Shown here in pieces: positions 8,016 to 57,662 of a stretch of DNA of 64,000 nt. The stretch is taken from positions 149,048,001-149,112,000 of the forward strand of contig OZ024740.1 of assembly GCA_964016885.1 (NCBI GenBank), given 5' to 3'. The notes under the pieces are model-generated. The model made no database searches, had not been told where the DNA came from, and saw only the letters and a list, made by a program, of their open reading frames with translations. The position numbers were made by a program, and so were the translations under genes. Position 1 is the stretch's first letter. Every line of letters starts with the position of its first letter. Origin of the DNA: Eledone cirrhosa. Taxonomy: Eukaryota.

Positions 8016-8556
8016 GTAAGTATCTTTTTGTCATTGTTATAAAATATCCTCTGATTGATGTAATATAATTCTAAAAGTTAGTCAATCTAGAAGCATAATG
8101 TTTCCATTTATAAGCACTTGTAATAGTATTTTGATTATTTCTTTAAAATTACAACAACTTGTAAACACTTAAGAGTGAAATGTTAGGAAGCTGTTAGGAG
8201 AGGAAATGGTCTTATGTGATAGTTATAATATAATCTTAATATAAAAAAAAGTAAAATCATTACAAACGACTAGTAAAACTATGGGCGTACATTTACAACC
8301 TCAATTTCACCGAAAGAGGTTACATGCATTATCGGGTTCGAAGAGAGAAGTTTAAGGTAGAGTACAAATAGTTGTTGTAGAATCGTCATTCTATTTAAAA
8401 TTATTCATATTATTCATAAATGAATAAATTCCGAGAGCGACACAAGTTTGAATAGACGGGTGCGGCAATGAATGCGAAGGTAAACATGAGAAAGAGATAG
8501 AGAGGCGGGGAGAGAGAAGGGGAGATTAATAGATAGATGGATAGAATATATATAAG

Positions 8557-8751
8557 GGCGGTGGATTGGCAGTATCGGCAGAGGGTCGGACGTCATGCTT
8601 TGACGCATAGAGTTACGGCCCTTGCCATTCTGATTTCAAATCCCGCCGAGGTTAACTTTGCCTTTCATTCTTACGGGGTCGATAAAATAAAGTACCAGTA
8701 ATACACTGGTTTATTGCTGGCCTTGTGCCAAAAGTAGAAACAATTATTATT
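8557..8751 (+). mobile_element. tRNA-derived SINE, near full length
   Basis: Box-B-like TTCAAATCCC, central GCCTTTCAT.CTTACGGGGTCGATAAAATAAAGTACC (resembles a Meta-type SINE domain), tail GCCTTGTGCCAAAAGTAGAAACAA(TTA)n; more than 10 related copies in the window. Confidence 0.85.
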
Positions 8752-8790
8752 TATATATGTGTGTGGCTGTGTCTGTGTATATATATATAT

Positions 8791-11680
8791 ATATATGTGA
8801 ATATAGACATAGAATATTCGAAAATATTCTGTATGTTTATAATAAACATTTTGAAGACCTAATCGCTATAGAATAGAATACGTCACGTATTACAATTAGA
8901 TTCTCGATAAAAGCAAGGGAAGTAATCTACGCGTTTCATTCTTGTTAGAAATCATCAGGACTACATATCCAGTGCTTTTATCGAGAATGACACAGCTAGA
9001 GACTTATAGAATACTTAGCTGTGTACAGGAACTGGTTTGAAAGAGCGGTTGCCGGTCCGGCAGAAATTAGAAATTGGAATAAATGCTCTGAAATAGCGAT
9101 ATATATGTGAATATAGACATAGAATATTCGAAAATATTCTGTATGTTTATAATAAACATTTTGAAGACCTAATCGCTATAGAATAGAATACGTCACGTAT
9201 TACAATTAGATTCTCGATAAAAGCAAGGGAAGTAATCTACGCGTTTCATTCTTGTTAGAAATCATCAGGACTACATATCCAGTGCTTTTATCGAGAATGA
9301 CACAGCTAGAGACTTATAGAATACTTAGCTGTGTACAGGAACTGGTTTGAAAGAGCGGTTGCCGGTCCGGCAGAAATTAGAAATTGGAATAAATGCTCTG
9401 AAATAGCGATATATATGTGAATATAGACATAGAATATTCGAAAATATTCTGTATGTTTATAATAAACATTTTGAAGACCTAATCGCTATAGAATAGAATA
9501 CGTCACGTATTACAATTAGATTCTCGATAAAAGCAAGGGAAGTAATCTACGCGTTTCATTCTTGTTAGAAATCATCAGGACTACATATCCAGTGCTTTTA
9601 TCGAGAATGACACAGCTAGAGACTTATAGAATACTTAGCTGTGTACAGGAACTGGTTTGAAAGAGCGGTTGCCGGTCCGGCAGAAATTAGAAATTGGAAT
9701 AAATGCTCTGAAATAGCGATATATATGTGAATATAGACATAGAATATTCGAAAATATTCTGTATGTTTATAATAAACATTTTGAAGACCTAATCGCTATA
9801 GAATAGAATACGTCACGTATTACAATTAGATTCTCGATAAAAGCAAGGGAAGTAATCTACGCGTTTCATTCTTGTTAGAAATCATCAGGACTACATATCC
9901 AGTGCTTTTATCGAGAATGACACAGCTAGAGACTTATAGAATACTTAGCTGTGTACAGGAACTGGTTTGAAAGAGCGGTTGCCGGTCCGGCAGAAATTAG
10001 AAATTGGAATAAATGCTCTGAAATAGCGATATATATGTGAATATAGACATAGAATATTCGAAAATATTCTGTATGTTTATAATAAACATTTTGAAGACCT
10101 AATCGCTATAGAATAGAATACGTCACGTATTACAATTAGATTCTCGATAAAAGCAAGGGAAGTAATCTACGCGTTTCATTCTTGTTAGAAATCATCAGGA
10201 CTACATATCCAGTGCTTTTATCGAGAATGACACAGCTAGAGACTTATAGAATACTTAGCTGTGTACAGGAACTGGTTTGAAAGAGCGGTTGCCGGTCCGG
10301 CAGAAATTAGAAATTGGAATAAATGCTCTGAAATAGCGATATATATGTGAATATAGACATAGAATATTCGAAAATATTCTGTATGTTTATAATAAACATT
10401 TTGAAGACCTAATCGCTATAGAATAGAATACGTCACGTATTACAATTAGATTCTCGATAAAAGCAAGGGAAGTAATCTACGCGTTTCATTCTTGTTAGAA
10501 ATCATCAGGACTACATATCCAGTGCTTTTATCGAGAATGACACAGCTAGAGACTTATAGAATACTTAGCTGTGTACAGGAACTGGTTTGAAAGAGCGGTT
10601 GCCGGTCCGGCAGAAATTAGAAATTGGAATAAATGCTCTGAAATAGCGATATATATGTGAATATAGACATAGAATATTCGAAAATATTCTGTATGTTTAT
10701 AATAAACATTTTGAAGACCTAATCGCTATAGAATAGAATACGTCACGTATTACAATTAGATTCTCGATAAAAGCAAGGGAAGTAATCTACGCGTTTCATT
10801 CTTGTTAGAAATCATCAGGACTACATATCCAGTGCTTTTATCGAGAATGACACAGCTAGAGACTTATAGAATACTTAGCTGTGTACAGGAACTGGTTTGA
10901 AAGAGCGGTTGCCGGTCCGGCAGAAATTAGAAATTGGAATAAATGCTCTGAAATAGCGATATATATGTGAATATAGACATAGAATATTCGAAAATATTCT
11001 GTATGTTTATAATAAACATTTTGAAGACCTAATCGCTATAGAATAGAATACGTCACGTATTACAATTAGATTCTCGATAAAAGCAAGGGAAGTAATCTAC
11101 GCGTTTCATTCTTGTTAGAAATCATCAGGACTACATATCCAGTGCTTTTATCGAGAATGACACAGCTAGAGACTTATAGAATACTTAGCTGTGTACAGGA
11201 ACTGGTTTGAAAGAGCGGTTGCCGGTCCGGCAGAAATTAGAAATTGGAATAAATGCTCTGAAATAGCGATATATATGTGAATATAGACATAGAATATTCG
11301 AAAATATTCTGTATGTTTATAATAAACATTTTGAAGACCTAATCGCTATAGAATAGAATACGTCACGTATTACAATTAGATTCTCGATAAAAGCAAGGGA
11401 AGTAATCTACGCGTTTCATTCTTGTTAGAAATCATCAGGACTACATATCCAGTGCTTTTATCGAGAATGACACAGCTAGAGACTTATAGAATACTTAGCT
11501 GTGTACAGGAACTGGTTTGAAAGAGCGGTTGCCGGTCCGGCAGAAATTAGAAATTGGAATAAATGCTCTGAAATAGCGATATATATGTGAATATAGACAT
11601 AGAATATTCGAAAATATTCTGTATGTTTATAATAAACATTTTGAAGACCTAATCGCTATAGAATAGAATACGTCACGTAT
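8791..11680 (-). repeat. tandem array of ~9.3 identical 310-bp hammerhead-containing units (retrozyme / Penelope pLTR-like)
   Basis: Units start at 8791, 9101, 9411, 9721, 10031, 10341, 10651, 10961, 11271 and 11581 (partial); (TA)n on both flanks. Confidence 0.97.
8900..8988 (-). ncRNA. minimal type I hammerhead ribozyme (recurs every 310 bp, 9 copies)
   Basis: Minus strand: GTAGTC-CTGATGA-tTTCTaacaAGAAt-GAAAC-gc-GTA-GATTAC; stem I extended by the 16-bp pair ATTCTCGATAAAAGCA/TGCTTTTATCGAGAAT; palindromic stem III ACGCGT. Confidence 0.85.
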
Positions 11681-11845
11681 ATATATATAGAAATGGCTTC
11701 TACAGGACTAGAACTGTTTCATTCTCCTGTAGAAGCCATTTCTATATTAAATATTTATACTCTGCTATGTATTGAGTACCTTACTTACTGTGGTTACCCC
11801 CGATTGAACCCGGGATAAACTTATATATATATATATATATATAAG

Positions 11846-12186
11846 AGGAATTCCAACTTTGTCTGATTTACTCGTTTTATCTACAATCCTTTAAAATTTA
11901 TAATGGTATTAGAATGAAATAGTATGGTGGAATATTAAATGTTAAGTGTTAATTGAACAAGTACTTTCATGCTTTCGCAATCTTCAGGTTCATATTGTGT
12001 GGTGACAGTCAAGTTTTCAATTTTCTGAAAATTGCAAACTTGAACCTGAAGATTGCGAAAGCATGAAAGTACTTGTTCAATTAACACTTAACATTTAATA
12101 TTCTACTACACTATTTCATTCTAATACCATTATAAATTTTAAAGGATTGTAAATAAAACGAGTAAATCAGACAAAGTTGGAATTCC
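11846..12186. repeat. long inverted repeat (~147-bp arms) carrying a hammerhead in each arm
   Basis: 11846-11992 is the reverse complement of 12041-12186 with few mismatches; (TA)n nearby on both sides. Confidence 0.92.
12040..12080 (+). ncRNA. minimal type I hammerhead ribozyme
   Basis: TTGAAC-CTGAAGA-tTGCgaaaGCAt-GAAAG-ta-CTT-GTTCAA; palindromic stem III AGTACT; mirror copy on - at 11954-11992. Confidence 0.8.
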
Positions 12187-12231
12187 TTTTATTAATATAA
12201 TCTTCTATACACAATCATACACACCCGTGTA

Positions 12232-12323
<92 letters not shown>

Positions 12324-12390
12324 AAGATATGTAAGGTTAAAATTTGTTTGTGGGAATCAATGTGTAAACAAAGTAATGTTATTATTCTTT

Positions 12391-12578
12391 TTGGCAGTAT
12401 CGGTAGATGGTCGAACACCATGCTTTGACGCATAGGGTTACGGCCCTTGCCATTCTGAGTTAAAATGCCGCCGGGGTTAAATTTGCCTTTCATCCTTACG
12501 GGGTCGATGAAATAAAGTACCAGTAACGCACTGGAATAATTGCTGGCCTTGTGCCAAAAGTAGAAACAATTATTATTT
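12391..12578 (+). mobile_element. tRNA-derived SINE copy
   Basis: Homologous to 8557-8751. Confidence 0.85.
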
Positions 12579-12797
12579 TATTTTATTTATCCTCGCTCAT
12601 TTTTGCTTACTTTACTATCTTGTCTCTCTCACGCCTATCTTAACTACTTCATTTCTATTAGTGTAAAACAGTTGCCTTTAGGTCTGAGTAGATATCGGTA
12701 GGAAAATCGTTAGTGCAAGATATAGCGACTTCACCTCGAAGTATGAACTATTTCTGATGAAGGGCAGTATTTTATCTATTGCTTGCGATTGAGCATA

Positions 12798-12979
12798 ATA
12801 ATTGTTTCTACTTTTGGCACAAGGCCAGCAATTATCCGGGGTATTACTGGTACTTTATTTTATCGACTCCGTAAGGATGAAAGGCAAAGTTAAGCTCTGC
12901 AGGATTTGAACTCAGAATGGCAAGGGCCGTAACTCTACGCGTCAAAGCATGGCATCCGACCCTTTACCGATACTGCCAA
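12798..12979 (-). mobile_element. tRNA-derived SINE copy
   Basis: Reverse complement of the same family; forms an inverted pair with 12391-12578. Confidence 0.85.
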
Positions 12980-13066
12980 TATGCAATCAGCGCTCGTAGA
13001 CTGATTAATTTTTTCTCCTCTAACCTCTACTTTATGCCTAGTCGTTTATTTTCCCTAGTATTATAC

Positions 13067-13104
<38 letters not shown>

Positions 13105-13106
<2 letters not shown>

Positions 13107-13293
13107 CGGAGGAAATGTGGTAAGGAACCAGGTGGACCATAACGCACCAAAGTACTCAATACTTAGGGTAGTAGAGTGGGTAATAGGAACGAGTAGGACC
13201 CCGACGGCTGAGCTCAAGCCGTTTCGACGGCTAATTCTGGACTCAATTAGCCGTCGAGACGGCTTGAGCTCAGCCGTCGGGGTCCTACTCGTT

Positions 13294-13297
<4 letters not shown>
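13105..13297. mobile_element. palindromic (TA)n-associated repeat family P, copy 2
   Basis: Same head; ~55-bp-arm hairpin 13183-13297; (TA)n on both sides. Confidence 0.85.
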
Positions 13298-13352
<55 letters not shown>

Positions 13353-13689
13353 AGAGAGAGAGAGAGAGAGAGAGGGGGGTGATATTGGAAATAGCACTGA
13401 AAATATATTTCAGGGTCTGTTTTTCTTTTTTCCATTTCTTTGATTCGTCAAAGTGGCATTGTTGAAAAAATGAGAGGGACAATTCTTTTTAAAAAAAGAG
13501 TTTTATAATGTATATAAAGTATATAAAGTATTACCGGTTTCGATGTATTAGCAAAATTCATCTTATCAAATGTTGAGTATTACAAGTAAAAAGAATTAAT
13601 AAGGATTAAAAACTAAAAATTAAAGATTTAAAATTAAGTGTTGAGGTAAGTTTTTTCATCTTCCTTGTTGAGAAGGAGACTGTAATAAA

Positions 13690-13926
13690 AGCACTCAGTC
13701 CACACTGTAAAGTGGTTGCGTAGGAGACACGGTTAAAATATCCCAGTCCACACTGTAAATGTGGTTGGTGTTAGGAAGGGTATCCAGCCGTAGAAAACCC
13801 GCCAGAGTCAGTTCCGTACGAGCGAGACACGCCTCCCGACCAATCCCGCATTAAATTGAACAAAACCCTCTAACCCATGCTAACTTGGAAGATGGAGGTT
13901 AAAGGATGATAATGATGATGCTGATG

Positions 13927-13930
<4 letters not shown>
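13690..13930 (+). mobile_element. 3' part of a second SINE/LINE-like repeat with (TGA)n tail
   Basis: Internal duplication CAGTCCACACTGTAAA; ends AACCCATGCTA..TGGAAGATGGAGGTTAAA then (GAT)n; related stub at ~19910-19945. Confidence 0.5.
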
Positions 13931-13982
<52 letters not shown>

Positions 13983-14252
13983 CTTCAAAATATATTTTGA
14001 AGTAATATTAATAACTCCAGAAAACCTCCCAGTTGAGTGCTTCTAATCTATCGTAAAACCTTATTCATTGATTAATCAATGAACCTTGTTAAACTTTTGG
14101 TCATATATATATATATACAGATAAATCCACCAATTAATGGTAGGGTCTAAGCCGTATGAAGAACTCAATGTAATCCTTATGTAGAAGATGTCGTGAAGCA
14201 AAGTTTAAAATACAAAATGTCAACGATATAATTCATTGGAAGCAAAGTCAAA

Positions 14253-14641
14253 ATAATACAAATAGTGAAAACAATGAAATTAAACAAAATACGGGTAATT
14301 CATAGTAAAACTCATTATTTTACGATCGTTTCTGGGGGGTAGTTCTCGATATGTTCATTCTATTAGTGATCTATGTAAAATATATTACAAATTATCAAAG
14401 TAAGAAAATATACATACGTCTTCTCTACCCGCCGTTTCCACAAATAATATTTCTGAAGACGCCGGGTAGAGAAGACGTATGTATATTTTCTTACTTTGGT
14501 AATTTGTAATATATTTTACATAGATCACTAATAAAATGAACATACGGGGAATTACCCCCCAGAAACGATCGTAAAATAATGAGTTTTACTATGAATTAAC
14601 CGTATTTTGTTTAATTTCATTGTTTTTACTATTTGTATTAT
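14253..14641. repeat. long inverted repeat (~180-bp arms) next to (TA)n
   Basis: 14253-14433 is the reverse complement of 14462-14641. Confidence 0.9.
14448..14578 (+). ncRNA. candidate type I hammerhead with ~100-nt stem II insertion
   Basis: TATTT-CTGAAGA (14453) ... GAAAC-gatc-GTA-AAATA (14562-14578); palindromic stem III ACGATCGT. Confidence 0.55.
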
Positions 14642-14668
14642 ATATATATATATACTTGTATATATCAA

Positions 14669-14952
14669 ATAATTGTTTCTACTTTTGGCACAAGGCCAGC
14701 AAATACCCAGTGCATTACTGGTACTTTATTTTATCTGACCGTAAGGATGAAAGATAAAGTTAACCTCGACGGGATTTGAACTCAGACCGTAAAGGGACGT
14801 AATATGCTAGAAAGCATGGCGTCCAACCCTCTACCGATACTGCCAAAATAATTGTTCTACTTTTTGGCACAAGGCCAGCAATTATCCCAGTGTATTACTG
14901 GTACTTTATTTTATCGACCCCGTAAGGATGAAAGACAAATTTAACCTCGGCG
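14669..14952 (-). mobile_element. two head-to-tail SINE copies
   Basis: 14669-14845 near complete; 14848-14952 5'-truncated. Confidence 0.85.
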
Positions 14953-14994
14953 AATGGTAGTTAAGACGGGGTTAGATCACTATAATTGTTTATT

Positions 14995-15045
14995 GCATTA
15001 TATATATTTCTGTTGCATGGTTATTCATGTGACTTCATCAGATGC
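14995..15045 (-). ncRNA. degenerate type I hammerhead candidate
   Basis: Minus strand: GCAT-CTGATGA-agtcaCATGaataacCATGcaaca-GAAA-tatata-TA-ATGC; stem II is imperfect. Confidence 0.4.
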
Positions 15046-15426
15046 TTACGCAATCATTGGTGCAGTTATGCGGTCATTGTGATATGCCGGTAGCCATACA
15101 CATTCATCCAGTGGTGAAGTAGTTCGGTATATGAATTTTCCCTATGTTAGGTTTTAGAAGTTTAAGTATTAGTTTTCTGACTGATTATTGTAGTCTTTAA
15201 ATATTTTCTAGTTTCTGACTGGCCAGTCGCTACTCTCAGCATGTGGTCTATCTTTTCATCCACATTCTTTAGTTTTTTCGTTTTCGGACAGGCGTCGTTA
15301 CGTCTGGTGATATATGCAGTTAGAGTTTGTGTGCGTGTGTTGTGTGTGTGTGTGTAGGTGTGTGTGTGTATGTGCGTGTGTGTGTGTATCTATATATGCT
15401 ACTTAACAATTGTTTGCTCTTAACAG

Positions 15427-22104: not shown

Positions 22105-22460
22105 GATTGAGCAAGTATAAGGACCTGGAGATAGAAATTGGAAAAATGTGGAAATTGAGAACTAAAACAATACCAGTGGTTGTAGGCGGTCTGGGAATGA
22201 TACCTAAGGGGTCTAATGATTACTTATCGCAAATCCCAGGAAACCCGCGTATAGGAGTAATACAAAAGATAGTACTAATGTGAACTGCCCATATACTAAG
22301 GAAGATTCTGTCAATATAAGTACATCACAAGTCTAAACACTAAAGATGCATGTGTGAATATGTATGTTCTTTCTTGAACATGGCGGATCTTGTTGTCTCT
22401 TGAGGTCACTGGTTGTGACTTGGTGATAACTCGTATGAACATAAAGCAAGATAAATGCAA
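22103..22460 (+). mobile_element. R4/Dong-like family B, 3' fragment (B2)
   Basis: Near-identical to 37167-37519; (AAT)n on both sides. Confidence 0.92.
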
Positions 22461-22483
22461 CTATAATAATAATAATAATAATA

Positions 22484-22943
22484 CAGAGGCGGTGATAGAA
22501 AACGATCAGGTGAAGGTGCTGTGGGATTTTAGGATACAGGATGACAAGAAACTGGAACACAATAGACCTGACCTGGTGGTTGTGGACAAAGAAAAAAGAT
22601 CGTGCCTGATTGTGGATGTGGCCTGCCCATTCGACACGAGAGTGCAAGAGAAGGAGAGGGAGAAAATTAACCGATACCAGGACTTAAAGTGGGAGGTAAA
22701 AAGGATTTGGAACGGCCATGAAGTCAAAGTGATCCCGATTGTCATAGGCGCACTAGGGACTATCTCAAAAAGTTTCCAGGGATGGTTAAAGAAAATTGGC
22801 CCCTTCACGCTTTTTGGAACGCTTCAAAAGGCATGCTTGCTGAGAACAGCAAGAACCCTCCGATACGTCCTGAATATCTGTGGCTTGATATTCATTTCAA
22901 CAAACTTTCCAGTTAACTAACATCAATGACTGAGAATCAAAGA
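22484..22943 (+). mobile_element. R4/Dong-like family A, 5'-truncated copy A1 (~0.46 kb)
   Basis: RLE domain LWDF..RPDLVVVD...IVDVACPFD...K; same 3' UTR as the other A copies; (AAT)n flanks. Confidence 0.92.
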
Positions 22944-22954
22944 GTAATAACAAC

Positions 22955-23010
<56 letters not shown>

Positions 23011-23012
<2 letters not shown>

Positions 23013-24415
23013 GTGAAGTCATTGTGATGAAGAGGGGTAGGTTGAGCAGAAGTAACGGGATCCAGATACCAACAGGTGAGATGATAAAGGAAATTGACTC
23101 TGAGGAAGGATACAAGTATTTGGGCGTTCTGGAGGCTGATGGCATAAAGAACAAAAAAATGAAGGAATTGTTAAGAACTGAATACATTCGAAGAGTAAGG
23201 AGCGTATTGAAGTCACATCTGAACAGCAGAAATGCCATAAGCGCAGTAAATTCCCGAGCTGTGTCTATTATTAGGTACAGTGCGGGAATTCTGAGATGGA
23301 ATGTTGCTGAACAAAAAGAAATGGATAGGAAGACTAGGAAGCTATTGACTATCTACAACATGTTCCACAAGAGGAGTGATGTCGATAGACTCTACCTAAG
23401 GAGATCTGAGGGTGGAAGAGGTCTTATCAGCATAGAGGACTGTGTTCAGATGGAGAAAAACAACCTATACAAATACGTGACCTATAGTAAGGAGCCAATG
23501 CTCAGAACTGTACTGAAGGAGGGGACAGTAGGCCAGGGGATGTCCAAGGAGGAAATAACATCAAGGAGGAAGAGCAGCCTTAAGGGAAAATCCCTTCATA
23601 GTACCTTCTTTGAGAAAACTGAATTTAGAGATCCACAGACATGGAACTGGTTGAGAAGAGGAGACCTCAAAAAGGCTACAGAAGGAATGCTAATGGCTGC
23701 GCAGGAGCAGGCCCTCAAAACGAAGTGGTTGAAGCACCATATCTACAAGGAGGAGGCTAGCCCACTGTGCAGGATCTGTGGAGAGAGAGAGGAGACTGTG
23801 GCTCACATTGTGTCCGAGTGTAAACACCTAGCCCAGACCCACTATAAGGGCTGGAGACACGATGTGATGGGCAGGGTGATCCACTGGCACCTGTGCAAAG
23901 TAAACAATCTACCACATTCTGAGAAATGGTATGAGCATAGGCCAGAGGCGGTGATGGAGAACAGTCAGGTGAAGGTACTGTGGGATTTTAGGATACAGAC
24001 GGACAAAAAACTGGAACACAATAGACCTGACCTGGTGGTTATGGACAAAGAAAAAAGATCGTGCCTGATTGTGGATGTGGCCTGCCCGTTCGACACGAGA
24101 GTGCAAGAGAAGGAGAGGGAGAAAATTAACCGATACCAGGACCTAAAGTGGGAGGTGAAAAGGATTTGGAACTGCCATGAAGTCAAAGTGATCCCGATTG
24201 TCATAGGCGCACTGGGGACTATCTCCAAAGGTTTCCAGGGATGGTTAAAGAAAATCGGCCCCTTCACGCTTTTTGGAACGCTTCAAAAGGCATGGTTGCT
24301 TGGAACAGCAAGAACCCTCCGATACGTCCTGAATATCTGAGGCTGCAGGTAGTGGCTTGATATTCAATCCAACGGACTTTCCAGTTAACCAACATCAATG
24401 ACTGAGATTCAAGGA
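23011..24415 (+). mobile_element. R4/Dong-like family A, 5'-truncated copy A2 (~1.4 kb)
   Basis: Open 438-aa frame: YKYLG thumb region, CRICGEREETVAHIVSEC CCHC finger, RHD, PD..D..K endonuclease; (AAT)n flanks. Confidence 0.95.
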
Positions 24416-24448
24416 ATAACAATAACAATAATAATAATAATAATAATA

Positions 24449-25961
24449 CATGGACGATCTTAAGCTCTTCGAGAAGAGTGAGAAGGAGTTGGATGCGCTT
24501 GTTGACACTGTCTGTATTTTCAGCAGTGATATATGTATGCAGTTTGGTATTAGTAAGTGTGGAGTCATTGTGATGAGGAGGGGTAGGTTGAGCAGAAGTA
24601 ACGGAATCCAGATACCAACAGGTGAGATGATAAAGGAAATTGACTCTGAGGAAGGATACAAGTATTTGGGCGTTCTGGAGGCTGATGGCATAAAGAACAA
24701 AAAAATGAAGGAATTGTTAAGAACTGAATACATTCGGAGAGTAAGGGGCGTATTGAAGTCACATCTGAACAGCAGAAATGCCATAAGCGCAGTAAATTCC
24801 CGAGTTGTGTCTATTATTAGGTACAGTGCGGGAATTCTGAGATGGAATGTTGCTGAACAAAAAGAAATGTATAGGAAGACTAGGAAGCTATTGACTATCT
24901 ACAACATGTTCCACAAGAGGAGTGATGTCGATAGACTCTACCTAAGGAGATCTGAGGGTGGAAGAGGTCTTATCAGCATAGAGGACTGTGTTCAGATGGA
25001 GAAAAACAACCTACACAAATACGTGACTGATAGTAAGGAGCCAATGCTCAGAACTGTACTGAAGGAGGGGACAATAGGCCAGGGGATGTCCAAGGAGGAA
25101 ATAACATCAAGGAGAAAGAGCAGCCTTCAGGGAAAATCCCTTCATAGTACCTTCTTTGAGAAAACTGAATTTAGAGATCCACAGACATGGAACTGGTTGA
25201 GAAGAGGAGACCTCAAAAAGGCTACAGAAGGAATGTTAATGGCTGCGCAGGAGCAGGCCCTCAAAACGAAGTGGTTGAAGCACCATATTTACAAGGAGGA
25301 GGCTAGCCCACTGTGCAGGATCTGTGGATAGAGAGAGGAGACTGTGGCTCACATTGTATCCGAGTGTAAACACCTAGCCCAGACCCACTATAAGGGCTGG
25401 AGACATGATGTGATGGGCAGGGTGATCCACTGGCACCTGTGCAAAGTAAACAATTTACCACATTCTGAGAAATGGTATGAGCATAAGCCAGAGGCGGTGA
25501 TGGAGAACGATCAGGTGAAGGTGCTGTGGGATTTTAGGATACAGACGGACAAGAAACTGGAACACAATAGACCTGACCTGGTGGTTGTGGACAAAGAAAA
25601 AAGATCGTGTCTGATTGTGGATGTGGCCTGCCCATTCGACACGAGAGTGCAAGAGAAGGAGAGGGAGAAAATTAACCGATACCAGGACTTAAAGTGGGAG
25701 GTAAAAAGGATTTGGAACGGCCATGAAGTCAAAGTGATCCCGATTGTCATAGGTGCACTGGGGACTATCTCCAAAAGTTTCCAGGGATGGTTAAAGAAAA
25801 TCGGCCCCTTCACGCTTTTTGGAACGCTTCAAAAGGCATGCTTGCTGGGAACAGCAAGAACCCTCCGATACGTCCTGAATATCTGAGGCTGCAGGTAGTG
25901 GCTTGATATTCATTCCAACGGACTTTCCAGTTAACTAACATCAATGACTGAGATTCAAGGA
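24449..25961 (+). mobile_element. R4/Dong-like family A, 5'-truncated copy A3 (~1.5 kb)
   Basis: Starts at the RT MDDLKLF motif; premature TAG at 25329-25331; (AAT)n flanks. Confidence 0.95.
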
Positions 25962-25987
25962 ATAATAACAATAATAATAATACATTA

Positions 25988-27670
25988 TTGACATCAACTG
26001 GAGAATCCTTGTGAAGCGTGAAGATCAAGAGAGGTATCTTCCAGGGAGATAGCCTGTCCCCTCTGTTGTTTGTCCTTGCCCTGATGCCCCTGACCAGTGT
26101 ACTGCGAAATGTGAGAGCAGGATACAGGTTGGGAAAGGGAGGGCTTACCATCAGTCACCTCCTCTTCATGGACGATCTTAAGCTCTTCGGGAAGAGTGAG
26201 AAGGAGTTGGATGTGCTTGTTGACACTGTCCGTATTTTCAGCAATGATATATGTATGCAATTTGGTATTAGTAAGTGTGAATTCATTGTGATGAAGAGGG
26301 GTAAGTTGAGCAGAAGTAACGGAATCCAGGTACCAACAGGTAAGATGATAAAGGAAATTGACTCTGAAGAAGGATACAAGTATTTGGGCGTTCTGGAGGC
26401 AGATGGCATAAAGAACAAAAAAATGAAGGAATTGTTAAGAACTGAATACATTCGGAGAGAAAGGAGCGTATTGAAGTCACATCTGAACAGCAGAAATGCC
26501 ATAAGCGCAGTAAATTCCCGAGCTGTGTCTATTATTAGGTACAGTGCGGGAATTCTGAGATGGAATGTTGCTGAACAAAACGAAATGTATAGGAAGACTA
26601 GGAAGCTATTGACTATCTACAACATGTTCCACAAGAGGAGTGATGTCGATAGACTCTACCTAAGGAGATCTGAGGGTGGAAGAGGTCTTATCAGCATAGA
26701 GGACTGTGTTCAGATGGAGAAAAACAACCTACACAAATACGTGACTGATAGTAAGGAGCCAATGCTCAGAACTGTACTGAAGGAGGGGACAATAGACCAG
26801 GGGATGTCCAAGGAGGAAATAACATCAAGGAGAAAGAGCAGCCTTCAGGAAAAATCCCTTCATAGTACCTTCTTTGAGAAAACTGAATTTAGAGATCCAC
26901 AGACATGGAACTGGTTGAGAAGAGGAGACCTTAAAAAGGCTACAGAAGGAATGTTAATGGCTGCGCAGGAGCAGGCCCTCAAAACGAAGTGGTTGAAACA
27001 CCATATTTACAAGGAGGAGGCTAGCCCACTGTGCAGGATCTGTGGAGAGAGAGAGGAGACTGTGGCTTACATTGTATCCGAGTGTAAACACCTAGCCCAG
27101 ACCCACTATAAGGGCTGGAGACATGATGTGGGTGATCCACTGGCACCTGTGCAAAGTAAACAATTTACCACATTCTGAGAAATGGTATGAACATAAGCCA
27201 GAGGCGGTGATGGAGAACGATCAGGTGAAGGTGCTGTGGGATTTTAGGATACAGACGGACAAGAAACTGGAACACAATAGACCTGACCTGGTGGTTGTGG
27301 ACAAAGAAAAAAGATCGTGTCTGATTGTGGATGTGGCCTGCCCATTCGACACGAGAGTGCAAGAGAAGGAGAGGGAGAAAATTAACCGATACCAGGACTT
27401 AAAGTGGGAGGTAAAAAGGATTTGGAACTGCCATGAAGTCAAGGTGATCCCGATTGTCATAGGCGCACTGGGGACTATCTCCAAAAGTTTCCAGGGATGG
27501 TTAAAGAAAATCGGCCCTTCACGCTTTTTGGAACGCTTCAAAAGGCATGCTTGCTGGGAACAGCAAGAACCCTCCGATACGTCCTGAATATCTGAGGCTG
27601 CAGGTAGTGGCTTGATATTCATTCCAACGGACTTTCCAGTTAACTAACATCAATGACTGAGATTCAAGGA
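25988..27670 (+). mobile_element. R4/Dong-like family A, 5'-truncated copy A4 (~1.7 kb)
   Basis: RT motifs RGIFQGDSLSPLLF and FMDD; frameshifts near 27130 and 27517; (AAT)n flanks. Confidence 0.95.
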
Positions 27671-27682
27671 ATAATAATAATA

Positions 27683-27721
<39 letters not shown>

Positions 27722-27963
27722 TTTTCTTTATTAACCACAAGGGTTCACATAAAGTAGACATTAAGGACAGTACAGGACAATACAGGACGGTACAAATGGG
27801 CATTTCTGCGTGTAAAAAAACAGAGGTTGAAATAAAATAGCAAAGAAAAATTCCCCAATAGGGGGGAGACTTCCGAGGGACATTTGTGGAGAAAGCCCAT
27901 TAAAAGACCACAGTGGCCCTGACCACCAGGGCAAGTGCCCTCTCCCAGTTTTCCACCTTTAAT

Positions 27964-30900
27964 TTACAGACACATACTCAGAGAAGGCCCATTCATTCGG
28001 GCCATACTTGCTTCTCTCACCCTTCTTTCAACAAAATGCTGGGAAGGGAGCACTTCCCTCTCTACCCTGATTTTCCTTTTTAAATGAAATTTGAAAAAGT
28101 TAATCAGGGCTTCACCGAAGAGGTAAGTGCTCGTCTTCAGCCCTTTCAAACGTGTCCACCATACTATCTCTTTCGCCATGGCCACCAGACAGATAAAAAC
28201 TGCCTGCCCTTCCTGGCTAAAGGAAGGGGGCGGGGCAATCCTCACGATGGACTCAGCTGATAGCTGGATAGGTCCTGCACGTGACAGCAGGTGTTCGACA
28301 TAAACCCACAAGTCAGCAATGCTCGGACACTGGACGAGTGCGTGCAGGACGGTTTCGTCGCCCTGTGCGCATCTCGGACATGCCCGGCTGACGGCACCTC
28401 CATGCCTGTAGAGTTTATACCGAACTGGCAAAGCTCCTCGGTAGCACTGCCAGGCCAGGGATTTCTGGAAGTTGTCTATAGGCCCCGGCCCGAAAGTCCT
28501 TCCGAAGAGATTGGCTAGTTGATTTTCGTCGACGCCTAGAGTTTCTCCAAGTACGTCGTCGCTCTTCCCCTCCACTAATCCCCTATAGAACGCCAAGGTG
28601 GAGTTTCCACCGATCACATTGCCCGATTGGTCGAGGGCTGTGTGTGCCTGAAGACATTCCAGTCTCCAAGCGCTCCCTCTCGGTCTTCGCTTGACCCAGG
28701 ACTGCAGCTCCGTCAAGGAGACGAGCTGGGGAAAAACGCGTCTTGCAAACGGCGACCACACCTGATCACCGTCGAGGAAGAGGTGGAGATGTCGTAGCCT
28801 GAGCGCGTGTCTGCGCATCATCAGCCACGGCATGCCCAGCCCTCCACGTAGCGGGTGTTGACAGCAGATGGACCGCCTGACCATCGGAGCGCGTCCCTTC
28901 CACAAGAAGCGAAAGAGCAAACGCTCCAGCGCAGTCAGGCGAGGCTAAGGACAAGGTACGACGGTCAGGCGGTAGTAGATGACGGATGCGATGTACGCAT
29001 TCGCCACCTCCGCTCGACCTTTCAGGGATAGCTTCCTCTCGGCCCATTTCTGGGTGAGAGAAGCCACCCTGCTCGTCACCTCGTCCCAGTTTTTGTCCGT
29101 CTGGAGGTCTGGACCGAACCAGACCCCTAGCAATTTAACCGGTCCGTCCGTCCAGCGCCCGACGACGCTGTTGGACGGCATGGACCTGCCTCTCCAGGTG
29201 CCGAGCTGCAGGCCCACTGACTTTTCCTGGTTGATCATTGCTCCTGTCACCGCTTCGTATTCTCTTAGTGTAGTGCCGATCGCCTCGATGTGTTTGGCGT
29301 TCGACACCTCTACAGTGACATCGTCGGCATATGCTGACACGGATCTTCCGCATCCTAGTTCGCGCGGGACCCCCCTCAACGTCTCCAGTTTGTGCAGTAA
29401 TGGCTCGAGAGTCAATACGTACAATAGGGACGAGAGGGGACATCCTTGGCGGACCGAGCGCATGATGTTGAACGGTTCCGAAAGGTGACCGTTCACTCTC
29501 ACTACAGAGCAGATGTCGCTGTGCATGGCAGCGATCCAGCCTCTGAAGACGGGCCCAAAGCCAGCCGCCCTCAGGACTGCCGCTAGGTAACGATGGTCGA
29601 CCCTATCGAAGGCTTTCGACTGATCTAAATTGATCAAAGACCCACCCGTGCCAGGTTCCCTAGCTACCCTCTCTACTATGTATCGCATGAGGTGGAGGTT
29701 GTCGTGGATGGATCTGTCGGGAATGGCGCATGTCTGTGCCTCTCCCACCAAACCACCAACGACAAGCGCCAACCTCTTTGCTAGCACCTTGGCCAAAATC
29801 TTGAACTCTGTGTTTAGCAGAGTTGTGGGCCTAAGATTATCTATGTTATCCCCCTTGTTCGGATCCTTTCTCAGCAGCGCCACCGCTCCTCGGCTCACAG
29901 AGCTGGGAATTCTCCCGTTCTGTTGCCAGTTGCAGTAGACGTCCGCCAAGAGGCCTCCGAACAAGTTTGGCATTTGTACGTAAAGTTCATAGGGCAGACC
30001 ATCCAAACCAGGCGATTTACCCCTTGTGCAACTAGTCATTGCATCCCGTACTTCAGCGGTTGTTATCGGCTTTTCGCAACACTCCGCCTCAGTGGCCGAA
30101 AGCCGCGGCAGTCCGTCGAGGTAGACACTAAAGTCCATCCCTCGATCCGGCCCGCCACTGCCCCCGAACAGTTGAGCGAAGTGTCGCTGAAAAGCTTCAC
30201 ACATTTGCCCGGGATCGAGTAGCATGCGCCCGTCGTGGTCCACCTAAGACCGGATCGTGGCTTTGTTGCCACGACGCGCCTCCGCCACTCTGGCCCATTG
30301 AACGGATTTCGTCCCCTCGTGTCTGAGAGCACGCACCCTAGCTCTGACAACGCAGCCTTCGTGCTTTGCATTGAAGAATTGGTCAAGGGCCAATTTCGCC
30401 GCAAGTACGTCGGTCGCGATGCCTTTGCTAAGCGCCTCATCTAATTTTCTAACTAGTTCTCCCTCTGCTCTATTTTTCTCTATTGCTAAAGTCTTACTAA
30501 ACCTAATGGACTCTATTCTAATTGCTCTTTTCAGAGCAAACCACCACTTGTTTTTGACGATGGCCCCCGTCAACGCCCGCTTAACTAGTTCGCTAATCCG
30601 GTCTCTGTAGGCCTTGCGCGCTGGTAAGGATGCGTTTAGCTTCCAGTAGCCGGGTCCTCGTCTATGAAGCCTATCTAAGTCAAGCACACAGATCACGAAT
30701 TTGTGGTCCGTGTAGCTGACTATCTTGAATTGTGGACAGCCTATGCTAGACCTATCTATTTCCCTACAAAATACTCTATCTAGATATGATCTGGATGACC
30801 TTATGCGATTTGTCCAAGTCCACATTGGTACATTCGGGAAATCCATTCGGTACCTGTCAGACAGTTCAAAACGTCTGAGCAGGTTGGTGAGACTCTTGCA

Positions 30901-31383
30901 CCCTCCTTCTCTATCCACTAATCCCACACAATCCCAGCGTGCATCTAAGATCCCGTTCCAGTCGCCCACTAACACTAAAGAGCGGGACGTTCCAAGAAAG
31001 GTCTCCAGACGCCGGAAGAAATCAGGCCGCCCTGCTCCTGTCGGGGCATAGACGGCCACTAACCTGAAAGCTTGCCCGTCTCCGCTGGTCACGTCCAGCA
31101 CCACCAACTTACCTTCTGGGTCCAGGAAGATGGCCCGTATGGCAAGATCCAAACCTCTCCGAAAAAGCACAGCAACTCCTCCCCCCGATCCCGGACGGCT
31201 GGGAGATGCGTACACATCGTAGCCGCCGAAGATCGGTGCGAAAGCCTGTGCCTCGGAGATTCTGGTCTCGCTGATGGCCACTACATCTATGTTTAGTGAC
31301 CTGAGGTCGTTGAGCAGGTGGCCCTGCTTCCATGACGACCCCAAGCCACGTGCATTTATGCTGCCTATTCTGAGTGAGGTCAT
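27964..31383 (-). pseudogene. C1 ORF2 (APE endonuclease, reverse transcriptase, CCHC finger) with two in-frame TAG stops
   Basis: SINARGL, VYAP, GDWN, SYLDR, TDH (APE); KSPGLDG, LDQSKAFDRV, RQGCPLS, AYADD (RT); CPRC..ETVLH..QC. The three ORFs share one frame, broken by stops at 30244 and 28945. Confidence 0.92.
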
Positions 31384-31417
31384 GTTGAAAAGGAGTGGAA
31401 AAGATGGGAAAGACCAC

Positions 31418-33402
31418 TTACCTTACTTTTCGTAGGGGAAGGACGGCTTTTCCATCCTTTTCACTGCTTGTGGCCTCCTCAGGAAGGATGTCCTTATAAA
31501 TCCTCCTGGAGAGTGCTTGTCGGAAGTCTCCGATGTCTTTGGGGAATTTTTGTTTTAGTGTTACGTACGTTTTCTGTGTGATGCGAGTGATTTGTAAGTG
31601 TGGAGGTGGTGTGAATTTTGGGGTTGTTGTGTAGTCTTTTTCTGTGATGCTGGTGTTGTGTTGGATGTAGTGTAATAATTGCTTGTTGTTCAAATTTAAT
31701 GCTGTGTAGTGTGTATCGTTTTGGTTGTTTTGTTTTCTTTGCGTTTGTTGTGGGCTTGTTTCTGTTTCGCATTTTGGTGACTTTTGTGGTGTAGGTGATG
31801 GTGGTGTTGGAGTTAATGATGGTGATGGTGTTGGTGTTTGGGTTGATGGGGTTGGTGATGCTGGTGTGGATGGTGGCATATCTGTCCTAACTTTTTTGTT
31901 TCTTAGTTTATTTGTTTCCCTCTGTATTTTGTTTTTGGAGGGGGAAGGAAGAGAATTTTTTCTTTTTTGGTTTCTTTTTTTTTTCCCGGATATCGTTTCC
32001 CACTCCTCGTCGTCACAATCTGTCTCCAGTTGTGATAGGCCGGGGAGTGGAAAATCCTCCACAGCCGTTAGTTTTGGTTGTGGTGTGGTGGATGGTGTAG
32101 GCGCTGGTGCTAGTTCTGAAGCCTTGGGTGGTGGTGGTGTTGGTTTTGCTGGTGGTGGTAGTGGTGTTGGTTTTGCTACTGTTGCTGGGGTTGTTGCTGT
32201 TATAGTTGCTTCTGTTGTTGCTGCTACAGTTGTTGCTGCCATCTCTGCTACTGGTGGTGTTGATGGTTGTGTCACTGGGGTGGGTAGGAGAGGTGGCCTC
32301 AACCTTTTAGCCTGAGGGCAGAAAGCCCTTAGGTGGCTTCCTTCACCACAAACGACACACCTAGGTCTTCTGCCCTCGACAATTACCGTGGGGTGGCTGC
32401 CGTCAGTGAGGTCTATTACCTCTGGGATCTCCTCAATGCTTTTTGGGTCCGCTTGGATCAGGAGCTCCATCCCAGATCCGGACCAGTTTTCCTGCTTTTC
32501 TTTTGCTACTGCTATTATTTTCGTGTTGGCTTCGATGCCGGCGAGGACAGCCGCTATTAGCCAGGGAATTTCGATGGCCGGTGGAACGTGGGTCACCCTG
32601 ACCTTTACGAGTCTCTGGCCACAATAGCTTGGGACGAGTGTGAGGTCGTCACTTTTTAATGGGGCCATGGAGTGTTCTCTAGCCTCCTCTGGTGTTTCAA
32701 AGAACACATCCACGGTTCCATACTTTTGCCCACGTCTGATGTGGGTTTTTCTTGCCCACACATGTCCCAAAGCTTTTTGGATTTGGGACTCGGATGCCCG
32801 TTCCACTCGGCGCGATTTTACATTTATTGTTCTATACGACACGGTGCACAGGCGCCGATGCTCCATTTTATTAGGTGGGGGGTGAGGCTGACCCTGTACC
32901 CATCTTTCTTTACCATTTGTTTGGTATTTTCTAAATCTTCTTGAGTTACCGTGAACGCTTCGAATTGTTTTGCTACGATGGCGAAACTGAGGGTCGGTTT
33001 TATAATGTCATTGTTGTTGTTGTTGCTAGCGTTAATATTAATTTTATTTTCAGTTGTGGTGGTGGTGACGTCAGTCGTCTTTGGTGGGGAAGAGTCCATT
33101 TTGCTTGATTTCATTTCGACGTCACGAGTTACTTTATTTTTTTCTTCTTTTGTTTCTGTTGTCGCGGTGGTGGTGGTGGTGGTGGTTGTCGCGGTGGTGG
33201 TGGTGGTGGAGGGTTTAACACCTGCAGTCATTGGTAATGGCGGGAAATGAATGTCTGCCTGAGACAAATTTAAAATATTGCTACTGCTTATATTTTTTTT
33301 TGTGTTGGCAAACGTAGTAACATTTACAATGGTGGTGTCGGTGTGAGGTGTTATTTTGTGAGGAAGGCTTTCAGCTGCTTCGTGCAGAGGGGAATTAGCC
33401 AT
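31418..33402 (-). pseudogene. C1 ORF1 (gag-like, CCHC zinc knuckle), split into two frames
   Basis: CVVCGEGSHLRAFC knuckle, Pro/Thr-rich linker, basic KKKRNQKRK; frame break near 32830-32990. Confidence 0.8.
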
Positions 33403-33656
33403 TTTTTTTCAAAGAAATTTTTGGATAATAATAAAAGTTAAAATTTTGGGCACAAGGCCCCAATCTTTTTGGGTGTCCTTTTCGGAAAACAATGTATGTG
33501 TGCTTATAAACAGTTAACAATAAAATTTTCCATAAATGGCAATTTTTAACAAACGGAAATAACAAACCTTTGCGGAGCTCACGATGATAAGATTTACTAC
33601 GTAGGTCGCCAATAATAATAATAATAATATAATAATAATAATAAGAAGAAGAAGAA

Positions 33657-36600
33657 GTGTTAATATAGAAGTGGTAACACGAAATGATTACCCCTTGGCG
33701 GATAAGGATAAAACGCGACAAAATAAAGTAGATGTCTAATGATGAAATCTCATACCGGATCGGCCGTCACCCGGGTAAAAAAGGGCCGCGTCCCTCAGAG
33801 AGGAACCAGACTGGGGTCGAAAAATCAGCTAATGGTTCAAACCTTCCCATCACTTCGGAGCTGGAGACCTCCCATAACCGGAATACTCCTATTGTTGGCC
33901 CTCCATGCTCACCACCAAGAAATCCAAAGAAAAAGAGAGAAAAATGGTCAAGGGAAGATAATAAAGAAGTCCTTGAGGCTTTCTACACTGCCATGTACTA
34001 CCCATCAAATACATCGAATACAGAACAAACATATATCAACTGGAAAAAGAAACATCCCGAAAACAGAGGCTATATTGACAGTAACAAACTAGCCAATATA
34101 CGAAGAAATATTGTAAGAAAAAAGTTACTAACTGATATAGAAATTGATCAGATCAAGCTAGTAGCACAAAGTCAGCGAAGGGAAAATGAAGCATGTGTCA
34201 GTGAAAACGAGGTAAACTGTAACACCTCGAATCCCAGGATTGGGGCGGAATCACTGGCAACAGAACAAATTAAAGAAAGGAGCGAAAAAGTGGAGGGAGT
34301 GCATGCTCAGGATGAAACTCCAAATGAAAATAATGAGATCGTAAATGATAAAGAAATGAATGAGAATGAACTTGCCAACTTGAAGGATGAAATTATGATC
34401 GAATGGATGAAAATGAAAGAATCTGACATGGGGCAACGAGACACCCTCCCTAAGATCCAGAACTCCAAACAGAACCAAAAGATAATACACAAGACTAACA
34501 TAATTCTCAAAAACATTATCATCACAAACAAACTAAACATTACTGACTTAAATCATCTCTATTATGCATCGGCTAAAGTCACCACTCACTTATGTGGAGT
34601 GAAGATGAAAAAACAAAGGAATTCCCACAAGAAATCTACTTGACAAGATAACATCAATCGCCAAATAAACCTCTCCGATCTGACATAGAAATTTTAACAA
34701 ACTATAAAGTAGGTGAATATGTTAAACAAACTAAACTTAGAAAATTGAAAAGAAAGTACAGTATAAGATCAACATGTGACATAGACATGCTGATAGAAAC
34801 AATCAAGCAAAAAGTGTCGGCCAAAGCTGCTCGTATAAGGCGCTTTGAAAAACGATCTAGATTCTATAAGGACAATAATATGTTCAAAAACAACCAAAGA
34901 AACTTCTACAGAAAAATTGGTAAGTCAACAATAACTGCTAAATCAATACCACCCAAGGAGGAAGTGCAAGAATTCTGGGAAAAGATCTGGGCCGAAGAAA
35001 AAGTTCATAACATACATGCCCCATGGATAGACAGACAAATGAAAGAAACAGCTCACCTTGAAGAACAAACATGGGAAAATATAACAGTTGAACAGCTGCG
35101 CTTGGCTCTAAGAAAAACCAGCAAATGGAAATCCCCAGGAAAAGACAAAATACAAAACTTTTGGATAAATGCCTTCACAGAGTCTCATGAGCTGTTAGCC
35201 CAACTTTACAATGAAATAGTTAAGGAGCCAGAAAAGATACCATCATGGCTAGTTAACGGCATTACATTCCTGCTACCGAAGAATGATGAGACAAACAATC
35301 CCAAAAATTACAGACCGATAACCTGCTTGACCACAATGTATAAAATTTTAACATCAGTCCTAACTGAATACACATATGACCACCTGATAACAAATGACCT
35401 ATTTCCCATTGAGCAGAAAGGGTGTAAACGAGGCTCATATGGCTGTAAGGATCAGCTTCTGGTTAACAAAATGATACTGGAAGATTGTCATAATAGACAC
35501 AAAAATCTATCGATTGCTTGGATAGATTATAAAAAAGCATTTGATAGTTTGCCACACAGTTGGATTGAAATATGTTTAGAGATTTTCAAAATATCTCCCG
35601 TTGTCAGGAGGTTTTTGTCATTCAGTATGAGGACATGGAGAACGACACTCCTTTTGAATATTGAAACAAAATCACTGGAAGCTGGAGAAGTTAACACTAA
35701 TTGTGGAATTTTTCAGGGTGACTCTTTATCACCGCTTTTATTCTGCATCGCACTTATACCATTAAGTAAAATGCTCAATGAAACAAAACATGGATATAGA
35801 GTCTATGACAAAACCATTAATCACCTGTTCTACATGGATGACCTGAAACTATTTACAAAAAATGATGAACAATTGCAAGGGCTATTATCCACTGTGAAGC
35901 AGTTCAGTGATGACATTAAAATGGAGTTTGGACTGGATAAATGCGCCAAAGCAACGTTCACCAGAGGAAAGCTGCTGAAGAGTTCAGACATTAATCTTTA
36001 TCGGGGGAACGTGATAAGAGAGCTTGATCAAGAAAAAACTTACGAATATCTAGGTGTTTGTGAAGGAGACGGAATCAAGCACTCGACAATGAGGGAAAGG
36101 ATAAGGAAGGAATGTTATCGCAGAGTCAGAGCAATCTTAAGAACGGAATTGAATGCAAGGAATAGGATCGATGCCATAAACACGCTGGCCATACCAGTAG
36201 TAACCTACAGTTACAATGTCATCAACTGGTCAAGCACAGAGATCCGTAGGCTCGATACAAAAATCCGAAAATTCTTAACCATGCACAGAATGCATCACCC
36301 TAAGGCAGACATAGATAGAATATATCTCCCTAGGAAAGAAGGAGGACGTGGGTTAATCCAGTTAGACATTGCGTTGAAAACTGCAACAATTGGATTATCC
36401 ACATATCTAAGGGAATCACATGATTGGATGATCAAACTCGTTTTGAAACACGAAAGCACCAAAAGATCATATTCCATTACAAAAGATGCACAAAGATACA
36501 GTAATGGACTACAAATTTCAGAAGTCCCATTTACTGCTGAAATGGAAAACACAGAAAAAGCAAAGCAGGTAAAAGTAACTGCAAAGAAAGAACTGCTACA

Positions 36601-37518
36601 GAAACTGGCTAAGAAATGGCAAGAAAAGCCTCTGTGTGGAAAATACCCAGAGCGAGCTAACAATCCTGATGTTGACAAAACTTTAACCCATCAGTGGTTG
36701 GCATCCTCTGGACTGAAATCGGAGACTGAAGGACTGATTATATCCGCACAAGATCAGTGTCAGCCAACAAAAAATTACCAAGCCAACATAATAAAAATGG
36801 GTGCAGCCCATTATGCCGTGTATGCAAAAAACAACCAGAGACCATTGACCATATAATTTCAATGTGCAGTCCTATAGCTCCAACCGAATACCTAAACAGG
36901 CATGACAGAGCTGCACAATACATACATTGGATAATGTGTAAGCATTTTGACCTGCCCCATCAAAAGAATTGGTGGGAGCATCAACCACCTCCCATACTTG
37001 AAAAAGATCACATCTCAATCTTGTGGAACTTTAGCATCCAAACAGACCGAAAAATAGATGCAAATAGACCTGATATAATACTGAAGGACTTTAAAAAGAG
37101 GGTATGCCTGCTAATTGATATGTCTGTTCCAATAGACAAGAATGTATCTATAAAAACATTTGAAAAATTGAGCAAGTATAAGGACCTGGAGATAGAAATT
37201 GGAAAAATGTGGAAATTGAGAACTAAAACAATACCAGTGGTTGTAGGCGCTCTGGGAATGATACCTAAGGGGTCTAACGACTACTTATCGCAAATCCCAG
37301 GAAACCCGCGTATAGGAGTAATACAAAAGATAGTACTAATGTGAACTGCCCATATACTAAGGAAGATCCTGTCAATATAAGTACATCACAAGTCTAAACA
37401 CTAAGGATGCATGTGAGTATGTATGTTCTTTCTTGAACATGGCGGACCTTGTTGTCTCTTGAGGTCACTGGTTGTGACTTGGTGATAACTCGTATGAACA
37501 TAAAGCAAGATAAATGCA

Positions 37519-37519
<1 letters not shown>
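33657..37519 (+). mobile_element. R4/Dong-like family B, near full-length copy B1
   Basis: Fragmented ORF 33732-37380: N-terminal WSREDNKEVLEAFY, RT (WKSPGKD, NYRPITCL, WIDYKKAFDS, GIFQGDSLSP, YMDD), CCHC finger, RHD, RPD..D RLE; preceded by (AAT)n(AAG)n and followed by (AAT)n. Confidence 0.94.
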
Positions 37520-37551
<32 letters not shown>

Positions 37552-37553
<2 letters not shown>

Positions 37554-37672: not shown

Positions 37673-37682
37673 AATAACAATG

Positions 37683-37715
<33 letters not shown>

Positions 37716-57631: not shown

Positions 57632-57662
57632 GTTGAAATGGAGTGGAAAATATGGGAAAGAC

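Follow-up and report, generated by a model that had tools for sequence, protein, structure and literature searches.

A young retrozyme family in Eledone cirrhosa with the insertion anatomy of Penelope-like elements

An intron of an SLCO/OATP transporter gene in Eledone cirrhosa contains an array of identical 310-bp units, each full unit bearing a hammerhead ribozyme, and the family to which this array belongs is an animal non-LTR retrozyme, a published kind of element. We propose that the family is probably non-autonomous, borrowing the reverse transcriptase (RT) and GIY-YIG endonuclease of a Penelope-like element (PLE), with ribozyme-cut 310-nt circles as the template. The evidence that we offer consists of ends bearing PLE signatures, a haplotype bottleneck of a single unit and a ribozyme core under selection. 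The youth and abundance of the family allow two questions about animal retrozymes to be approached from genome sequence, namely the identity of the enzyme that mobilizes them and the use of circles as template. Coordinates refer to the window, the whole 64,000-nt stretch analysed (assembly GCA_964016885.1, contig OZ024740.1, positions 149,048,001 to 149,112,000), and unit positions are numbered from the predicted cut site. Family names (R, S, a, c) and end names (tail, no-tail) were coined in this analysis.

The array in the window and its hammerhead

In the assembled sequence, a 310-bp period without a mismatch extends over 8789..11680 on the minus strand and comprises 9.33 copies with 100% matches. 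An earlier, sequence-only reading had described nine identical 310-bp units beginning at 8791; the units and their identity stood, but the true start is 2 bp away, at 8789. With 106/310 G+C (34%), the unit falls within the limits that define retrozymes (150-450 bp, GC <50%). The longest stop-free stretch in the six frames of the tandem unit was 59 aa, in line with the earlier statement that the array has no ORF, and the RT plus GIY-YIG ORF of an autonomous PLE is absent from the unit, while such ORFs occur elsewhere in the genome. No LTR arrangement is evident, as arrays start at random unit positions. The (TA)n flanks noted earlier were found at 8778-8796 on the left and 11678-11689 on the right, where the target duplication merges into (TA)n.

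The 5' end of the array is truncated at unit position 38 (11680), and its 3' end is the family's 'no-tail' site (8789..8803, minus strand; unit positions ~125-139), whose AT likeness to the target hides the exact point and at which reverse transcription of this arm would have started. Each unit also contains a 'tail' segment (unit positions 140-165; 9073..9098, minus strand); the other 3' end of the family, at unit position 165, is not the one used by the window insertion. With its inverted arm absent, the array represents the less common, single-armed form.

Nine CUGAUGA cores are present on the minus strand at 8958+310k, the last starting at 11438, as expected from the earlier description of a minus-strand type I hammerhead in every full unit. 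The first of these type I hammerheads with extended stem I spans 8900..8988 on the minus strand and recurs every 310 bp; its core occupies 8958-8928, stem I pairs 8964-8959 with 8927-8922, and the extended stem pairs 8988-8973 with 8915-8900. In the predicted circular fold, the 6 bp of stem I displayed pair probabilities of 0.85-1.0, and the 4-bp stem II, closed by a U.U mismatch, was weak (~0.15). Both the long extended stem I (z -4.7, 0/200 shuffles as stable) and the palindromic stem III (6 nt) that had been proposed earlier were recovered. The cleavage triplet is GUA, and applying the hammerhead consensus to the sequence places the predicted cut after it, between 8928 and 8927 on the minus strand (unit position 310|1) and every 310 bp thereafter, in agreement with the earlier placement. 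A type I descriptor gave 1 match on the sense unit, 0 on the antisense unit and 0/5000 in dinucleotide shuffles. The Rfam hammerhead models, to which the sequence-only reading had looked for confirmation, gave no match at the gathering score; the sole hammerhead match was to HH9, at 19.2 bits vs 52 (E 0.066).

The array had been placed inside a transporter intron, and we could identify this as an SLCO/OATP intron on the plus strand (8016..15426, with GT..AG ends), the exons ending at 8015 and resuming at 15427. The best named relative of the last SLCO exon was an Argonauta protein (68% identity). Because the SLCO gene is on the plus strand and the ribozymes are on the minus strand, the latter are antisense to SLCO pre-mRNA.

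Perfect identity of all nine units is what might be expected if the assembler had expanded a repeat. We find this explanation barely credible, since other loci have haplotypes and lengths of their own, and a public sequencing run (X2) covers the single-copy flank at depth 6-11 without differences, with a summed unit depth of 2.6-5.2e5. As that flank is covered without differences, X2 derives from the same species and is not independent support. In all, 20 public runs filed under 17 organism codes contain 76-100% of the unit's words. Horizontal transfer was rejected for three of the 4 runs that were mapped (X1, X3 and X10): they contain the unit at depth 10-34 together with the high-copy repeat beside it, and lack the exons, as expected of trace carry-over of DNA from this species. 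These three runs, filed under other organisms, serve as a warning for claims of horizontal transfer drawn from run indexes. The 340-nt contigs of the unit-bearing runs were likewise rejected as circular RNA, being collapsed tandem units, and metagenome contigs yielded 0 matches to the unit. No RNA run is among those listed with the unit, which has no bearing on whether the family is expressed.

Genomic family and insertion anatomy

An exact 31-mer of the core had 4,587 matches in the 3.0-Gb genome and its degenerate form had 16,981, compared to 0 for reversed-pattern controls; a further 891 units carry C or G at free position 7 (genome-wide pattern). Junctions running from the element into (TA)n numbered 1034 for the tail end and 1242 for the no-tail end genome-wide, so that the dispersed (TA)n copies expected of a retrozyme do exist. 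On C1 0-218 Mb, 81 + 100 ends resolved into 127 insertions. Scaling from this interval, we estimate a genome total of ~1,600 insertions, a lower bound that misses variant ends; the core patterns amount to ~17,900 hammerhead units. The recent origin suggested earlier is borne out by the within-array divergence (at most 5e-4) and by a young burst throughout the genome. In this cephalopod genome, the very recent insertions of the family amount to ~5.5 Mb (0.18%).

Insertion anatomy was examined at 78 loci (the window, 9 found via the core match and 68 via the tail junction), a sample in which single-armed no-tail insertions are under-represented. The 3' ends fell at two sites only, ~125-139 and 165 (26-40 nt apart), and the 5' ends were spread over the unit. 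Among the first 10 insertions retrieved with the core pattern, 8 consisted of two inverted arms joined 5' to 5', 1 was single-armed and 1 was cut by a gap. Divergent pairs of ends on C1 0-218 Mb combined a tail with a no-tail end in 54/54 cases, compared to about half if the ends were independent. Typable two-armed loci did so in 67/67, a set that overlaps the C1 pairs and was mostly chosen by tail end; 4 more loci were incomplete or complex. Arms had a median length of 3-4 units and a maximum of 27, and their junctions often involved a few shared bases or used the unit's own hairpins. Entry into ATAT/TATA was observed for 142/148 3' ends. The insertion at L034, in a non-TA target outside a microsatellite, has a 15-bp target duplication, beyond the 4 bp that visible duplications of non-LTR retrozymes should exceed; in (TA)n, duplications blend into the repeat.

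Judged by sequence anatomy, these insertions appear to have been made by PLE machinery. PLEs are described as inserting into (TA)n in partial tandems, with a 5'-truncated copy in inverted orientation and a tail of 30-40 bp at one end (PMC8557442), and the Poseidon PLE protein of the green anole as nicking and extending both strands in vitro, with two internal start sites that bound the tail (PMC11167929). As far as these two accounts go, the Eledone family has in common with EN+ PLEs the partial tandems, the inverted 5'-truncated copy, the tail at one end, AT-rich/(TA)n targets, the two internal start sites and a hammerhead ~125-165 nt upstream of the ends. Unlike EN+ PLEs, the 310-bp unit is non-coding and circularly permuted, and it is repeated for up to 27 laps.

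The route that we favour would begin with transcription of an array, whereupon hammerheads acting in pairs would complete stem III through their palindromic sequence and thereby release 310-nt monomers from the transcript. As shown for other animal retrozymes, the monomers would then be closed into circles, in which the lone hammerhead, with almost no stem III, would stay uncut. A PLE protein would nick (TA)n DNA and reverse transcription would begin inside the RNA, at ~125-139 or 165, as the anatomy of the ends suggests; the enzyme would lap the same unit several times and stop at random. In most cases extension takes place on both target strands, each from a different one of the two sites but with a common haplotype; the resulting products meet at their 5' ends, often where a few bases match, and thus form two inverted arms. 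The window array would be the single-armed outcome of this route.

L1-style twin priming, in which the first arm would halt at the second start site, was rejected: tail-arm 5' ends at 120-140 were only mildly enriched (8/70 vs ~5 expected), and there was no excess of no-tail-arm 5' ends at 160-175 (4/68). No pile-up of 5' ends was found at the cut site, most apparent cases running past it. Since covariation in the fold of the end region was slight (4/37 pairs), we claim no structure for that region. At one locus, 272 bp of unrelated GC-rich sequence was captured between the two arms (L037:3099-3370).

An older relative, family R (L072:2433-2870 and L135-L164; 229 matches), is 66-82% identical to the unit around the whole circle and is itself a circularly permuted retrozyme. 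It displays the same two 3' ends and inverted arms, its arms being shorter than 2 units in the loci read, and no tandem spacing was found among the 100 matches listed. Its hammerhead retains the U.U mismatch, its stems differ in sequence yet pair, and its stem III is 3 bp. A 4.2-kb spacing on C11 proved to be two separate insertions.

Haplotypes, template and ribozyme selection

The 70 insertions covered at least 2x at every position resolved into 30 haplotypes with tree-like nesting. A random pair of insertions shares a haplotype with probability 0.08; both arms of one insertion agreed in 52/56. Most haplotypes (20/30) were seen once, yet these fill whole insertions of up to ~24 units. Because a new change fills all laps and both arms at once, a single-unit template is needed. 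The most likely reading of these sequences is that arrays are already complete when they insert, both target strands having been extended on a single unit cut by its ribozyme, which was most likely circular.

Changes within arrays were infrequent, at no more than 5e-4 with junction artefacts counted in, and were distributed symmetrically between the strands (C>T 15, G>A 11); 85 substitutions were confined to a single lap vs ~10 that were repeated. It follows from the latter ratio that arrays were at full length before they mutated. This runs counter to the alternative that short PLE-type insertions later grew in place into minisatellites by unequal exchange (10.64898/2026.07.22.740005), as do the low within-array divergence and the lack of tandem spacing in the older family R, with its short arms, in the matches and loci described above. 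Private changes at irregular laps in L035+36, L037, L106 and L169 do point to some local duplication or conversion, but as a general origin of the arrays we regard growth in place as very improbable.

We next consider the ribozyme itself. Array-wide substitutions in the hammerhead were tolerated, i.e. fell at a free position or kept the pair, in 9/9 cases, compared to 30/129 of the possible ones (p 2e-6), whereas only 2/14 single-unit hammerhead substitutions were tolerated (Fisher p 7e-5 vs array-wide). Mutants of the catalytic-core residue G5 were found in 20 units genome-wide, 18 of them isolated plus one adjacent pair, and in no array; in contrast, variants at free position 7 fill whole arrays among the 100 of 891 matches viewed. 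This pattern of substitutions suggests that the ribozyme core is under purifying selection and that the bottleneck is filtered by the ribozyme. The bottleneck and the selection on the core lend indirect support to a rolling-circle reading. Among 687 crossings of the predicted cut site, single-lap changes at positions 309-2 numbered 4 (683/687 clean). A ribozyme-cut monomer read round repeatedly fits the bottleneck, the selection and the clean crossings alike; the simplest form of such a template is a covalent circle, as put forward in PMC7229834.

The same PLE priming could act on a cut but unligated monomer with its ends held by stem I, the enzyme jumping the nick on each lap in place of following a covalent circle. 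The high predicted pairing of positions 1-6 with 274-279 (0.85-1.0) would keep the ends of such a monomer adjacent, 2/3 indel events that fill an array map to +2 relative to the cut, changes at +1 occur in 3 laps, and DRT2 is described as a repeat-making reverse transcriptase that re-uses one region of its RNA template (PMC12039810). Set against this are the 683/687 crossings without a single-lap change, the lack of piled 5' ends at the cut, and the circles reported as the main form in three other animal retrozymes (PMC7229834), and we consider an unligated monomer unlikely.

Exceptions to the single-unit pattern also exist. In 7/81 arm groups (L035+36, L037, L106, L114, L119, L169 and L183), a private change is repeated over several laps or in both arms, and for this reason a single monomer circle cannot explain these groups. 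Both arms of L183 switch from haplotype 284A/294T to 287A after lap 2 from their own 3' ends, L119 has a lap-1 change common to both arms, and one arm of L114 changes midway. At these three loci, either the template must have been a multimer, or the arms must have switched template together or undergone conversion afterwards. Their arms, which read an ordered mixed template, favour a model in which the PLE machinery copies long uncut multimeric array transcripts and monomers matter rarely, founding new haplotypes. Published in vitro work on the anole PLE, as far as consulted, points the same way: the protein took unprocessed, uncut RNA and the hammerhead was dispensable (PMC11167929), which counts against a ribozyme-cut template and differs from the purifying selection on the hammerhead seen here. 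Likewise, 8/9 Xenopus dimers are reported to be without cleavage in vitro (10.64898/2026.07.22.740005), a result that counts against our best explanation. However, the 20/30 single-occurrence haplotypes nonetheless fill whole insertions, single-unit changes are mostly confined to one arm, and copying with 5' truncation alone would shorten arrays every round. As a general mechanism the multimer model thus seems quite unlikely, although this route may account for perhaps ~a tenth of insertions.

Returning to the ribozyme-cut circle, a weak palindromic helix III is described as allowing multimers to cleave while sparing monomer circles (PMC4209133). The weak palindromic stem III of the unit may explain the long arms here vs the short arms of family R, with its 3-bp stem III; age explains the difference equally well.

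Among array-wide substitutions, A>G accounted for 9/27, compared to 8/85 of single-unit ones (p 0.005, post hoc); 8/9 of these array-wide changes lie in predicted stems, and three sites recur on several backgrounds. Cephalopods are heavy RNA editors. It is conceivable, if doubtful, that a circular RNA evolves here in a viroid-like manner yet is inherited through the host genome, a PLE protein dimer using a single circle as rolling-circle template for both target strands, with A-to-I edits in the circle's long stems becoming fixed DNA haplotypes. For the twin rolling-circle part taken by itself, in which both arms are copied from one circle, we hold the chances to be about even. Selection for G.U-tolerated changes explains the A>G pattern equally well, template switching also explains it, and editing is not established.

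Partner elements, published systems and neighbouring insertions

The genome contains 10,597 GIY-YIG candidates, and two long RT plus C-terminal GIY-YIG ORFs (938 and ~1,000 aa) are open. A cysteine motif resembling that described for Neptune and Nematis (PMC8557442) precedes the nuclease. Autonomous PLE families a and c have the same two-site 3' ends, after a hammerhead-like motif. When 44 GIY-YIG loci out of the 10,597 candidates were searched by BLAST with the unit and with an end-region covariance model, no partner PLE resembling the unit in sequence or by the model was revealed, and only family R was recovered; nor was a pLTR homolog of the unit found among these 44 loci. Family c (window 11845-12240; L124, L125, L128 and L133), whose copies are 90-99% alike, has a hammerhead with the U.U mismatch and a palindromic stem III as well as tail/no-tail ends; its youth and layout make it a candidate partner, although its sequence does not resemble that of the unit. 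In the 3' UTR of family a (L121, L122, L126, L129, L130 and L134), an apparent hammerhead variant with U3-A8 replacing C3-G8 and a palindromic stem III was recognized by eye.

The closest published systems are the animal non-LTR retrozymes of coral, mussel and axolotl (Cervera and de la Pena 2020, PMC7229834), which, as presented there, are likewise non-coding tandem units of 150-450 bp with GC <50%, one type I hammerhead per unit and thousands of motifs. The hammerhead of the 310-bp unit resembles two axolotl ribozymes at once, sharing a weak palindromic helix III with HHR_Amex1 and the U.U at the base of stem II with HHR_Amex2. Expression and circles were demonstrated in that study, whereas the Eledone family is known here from genome sequence. 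The main text of that paper makes no mention of a tail, inverted arms, microsatellite targets, cephalopods or octopus. Retrozyme repeats are said in PMC7761336, in the part consulted, to show no motif indicating a partner, which is treated there as unknown. A 2026 preprint (10.64898/2026.07.22.740005) reaches the same conclusion as ours, linking retrozymes to PLEs; in the text available it draws on vertebrate co-occurrence and pLTR homology and has arrays arise via local amplification, whereas our argument rests on insertion anatomy and has arrays arrive ready-made. That text makes no mention of a tail, target site, cephalopods or molluscs. Non-autonomous Chlamys elements such as MRC1 offer a further comparison: in the account of PMC8557442, canonical hammerheads are reported to be missing from the Chlamys clade, in which non-autonomous members share 3'-end similarity with their partners, whereas the 310-bp unit has no such partner among the 44 loci. 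In the literature covered, mostly open-access main texts, we found no cephalopod retrozyme and no tail or inversion signatures in retrozymes. The 310-nt unit provides a minimal substrate with two mapped start sites for in vitro tests of PLE transposition.

Several other insertions are present in the window. The array sits in (TA)n at the end of a short inverted insertion of the hammerhead-bearing family S (11690..11823). In this family (also L126, L130, L132 and L192), the hammerhead lies at the 3' end of a longer element, with a stem II nearly as in the 310-bp unit and a stem III of 4 bp, and the copies are mostly tiny inverted insertions in (TA)n. Beyond it, at 11845..12240, a short two-armed inverted insertion of the 3' end of family c carries its own hammerheads, with the no-tail end on the left and the tail end on the right. 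Two hammerhead-like motifs with a long stem III, at 43110 and 43625 on the minus strand and 515 bp apart, possibly belong to another tandem of the retrozyme or PLE kind. Further motifs resembling type I hammerheads, with a palindromic stem III, were observed at 62790 (minus), 63271 (plus), 53176 (minus) and 15041 (minus); two of these use TATATA, and one divergent pair is present. Judging from translations, 22300-41600 and 54300-59000 hold a nest of LINE-like ORFs, several of them fragmented, among them an APE-RT element and, next to (AAT)n, an RT that carries a restriction-like nuclease at its C terminus.
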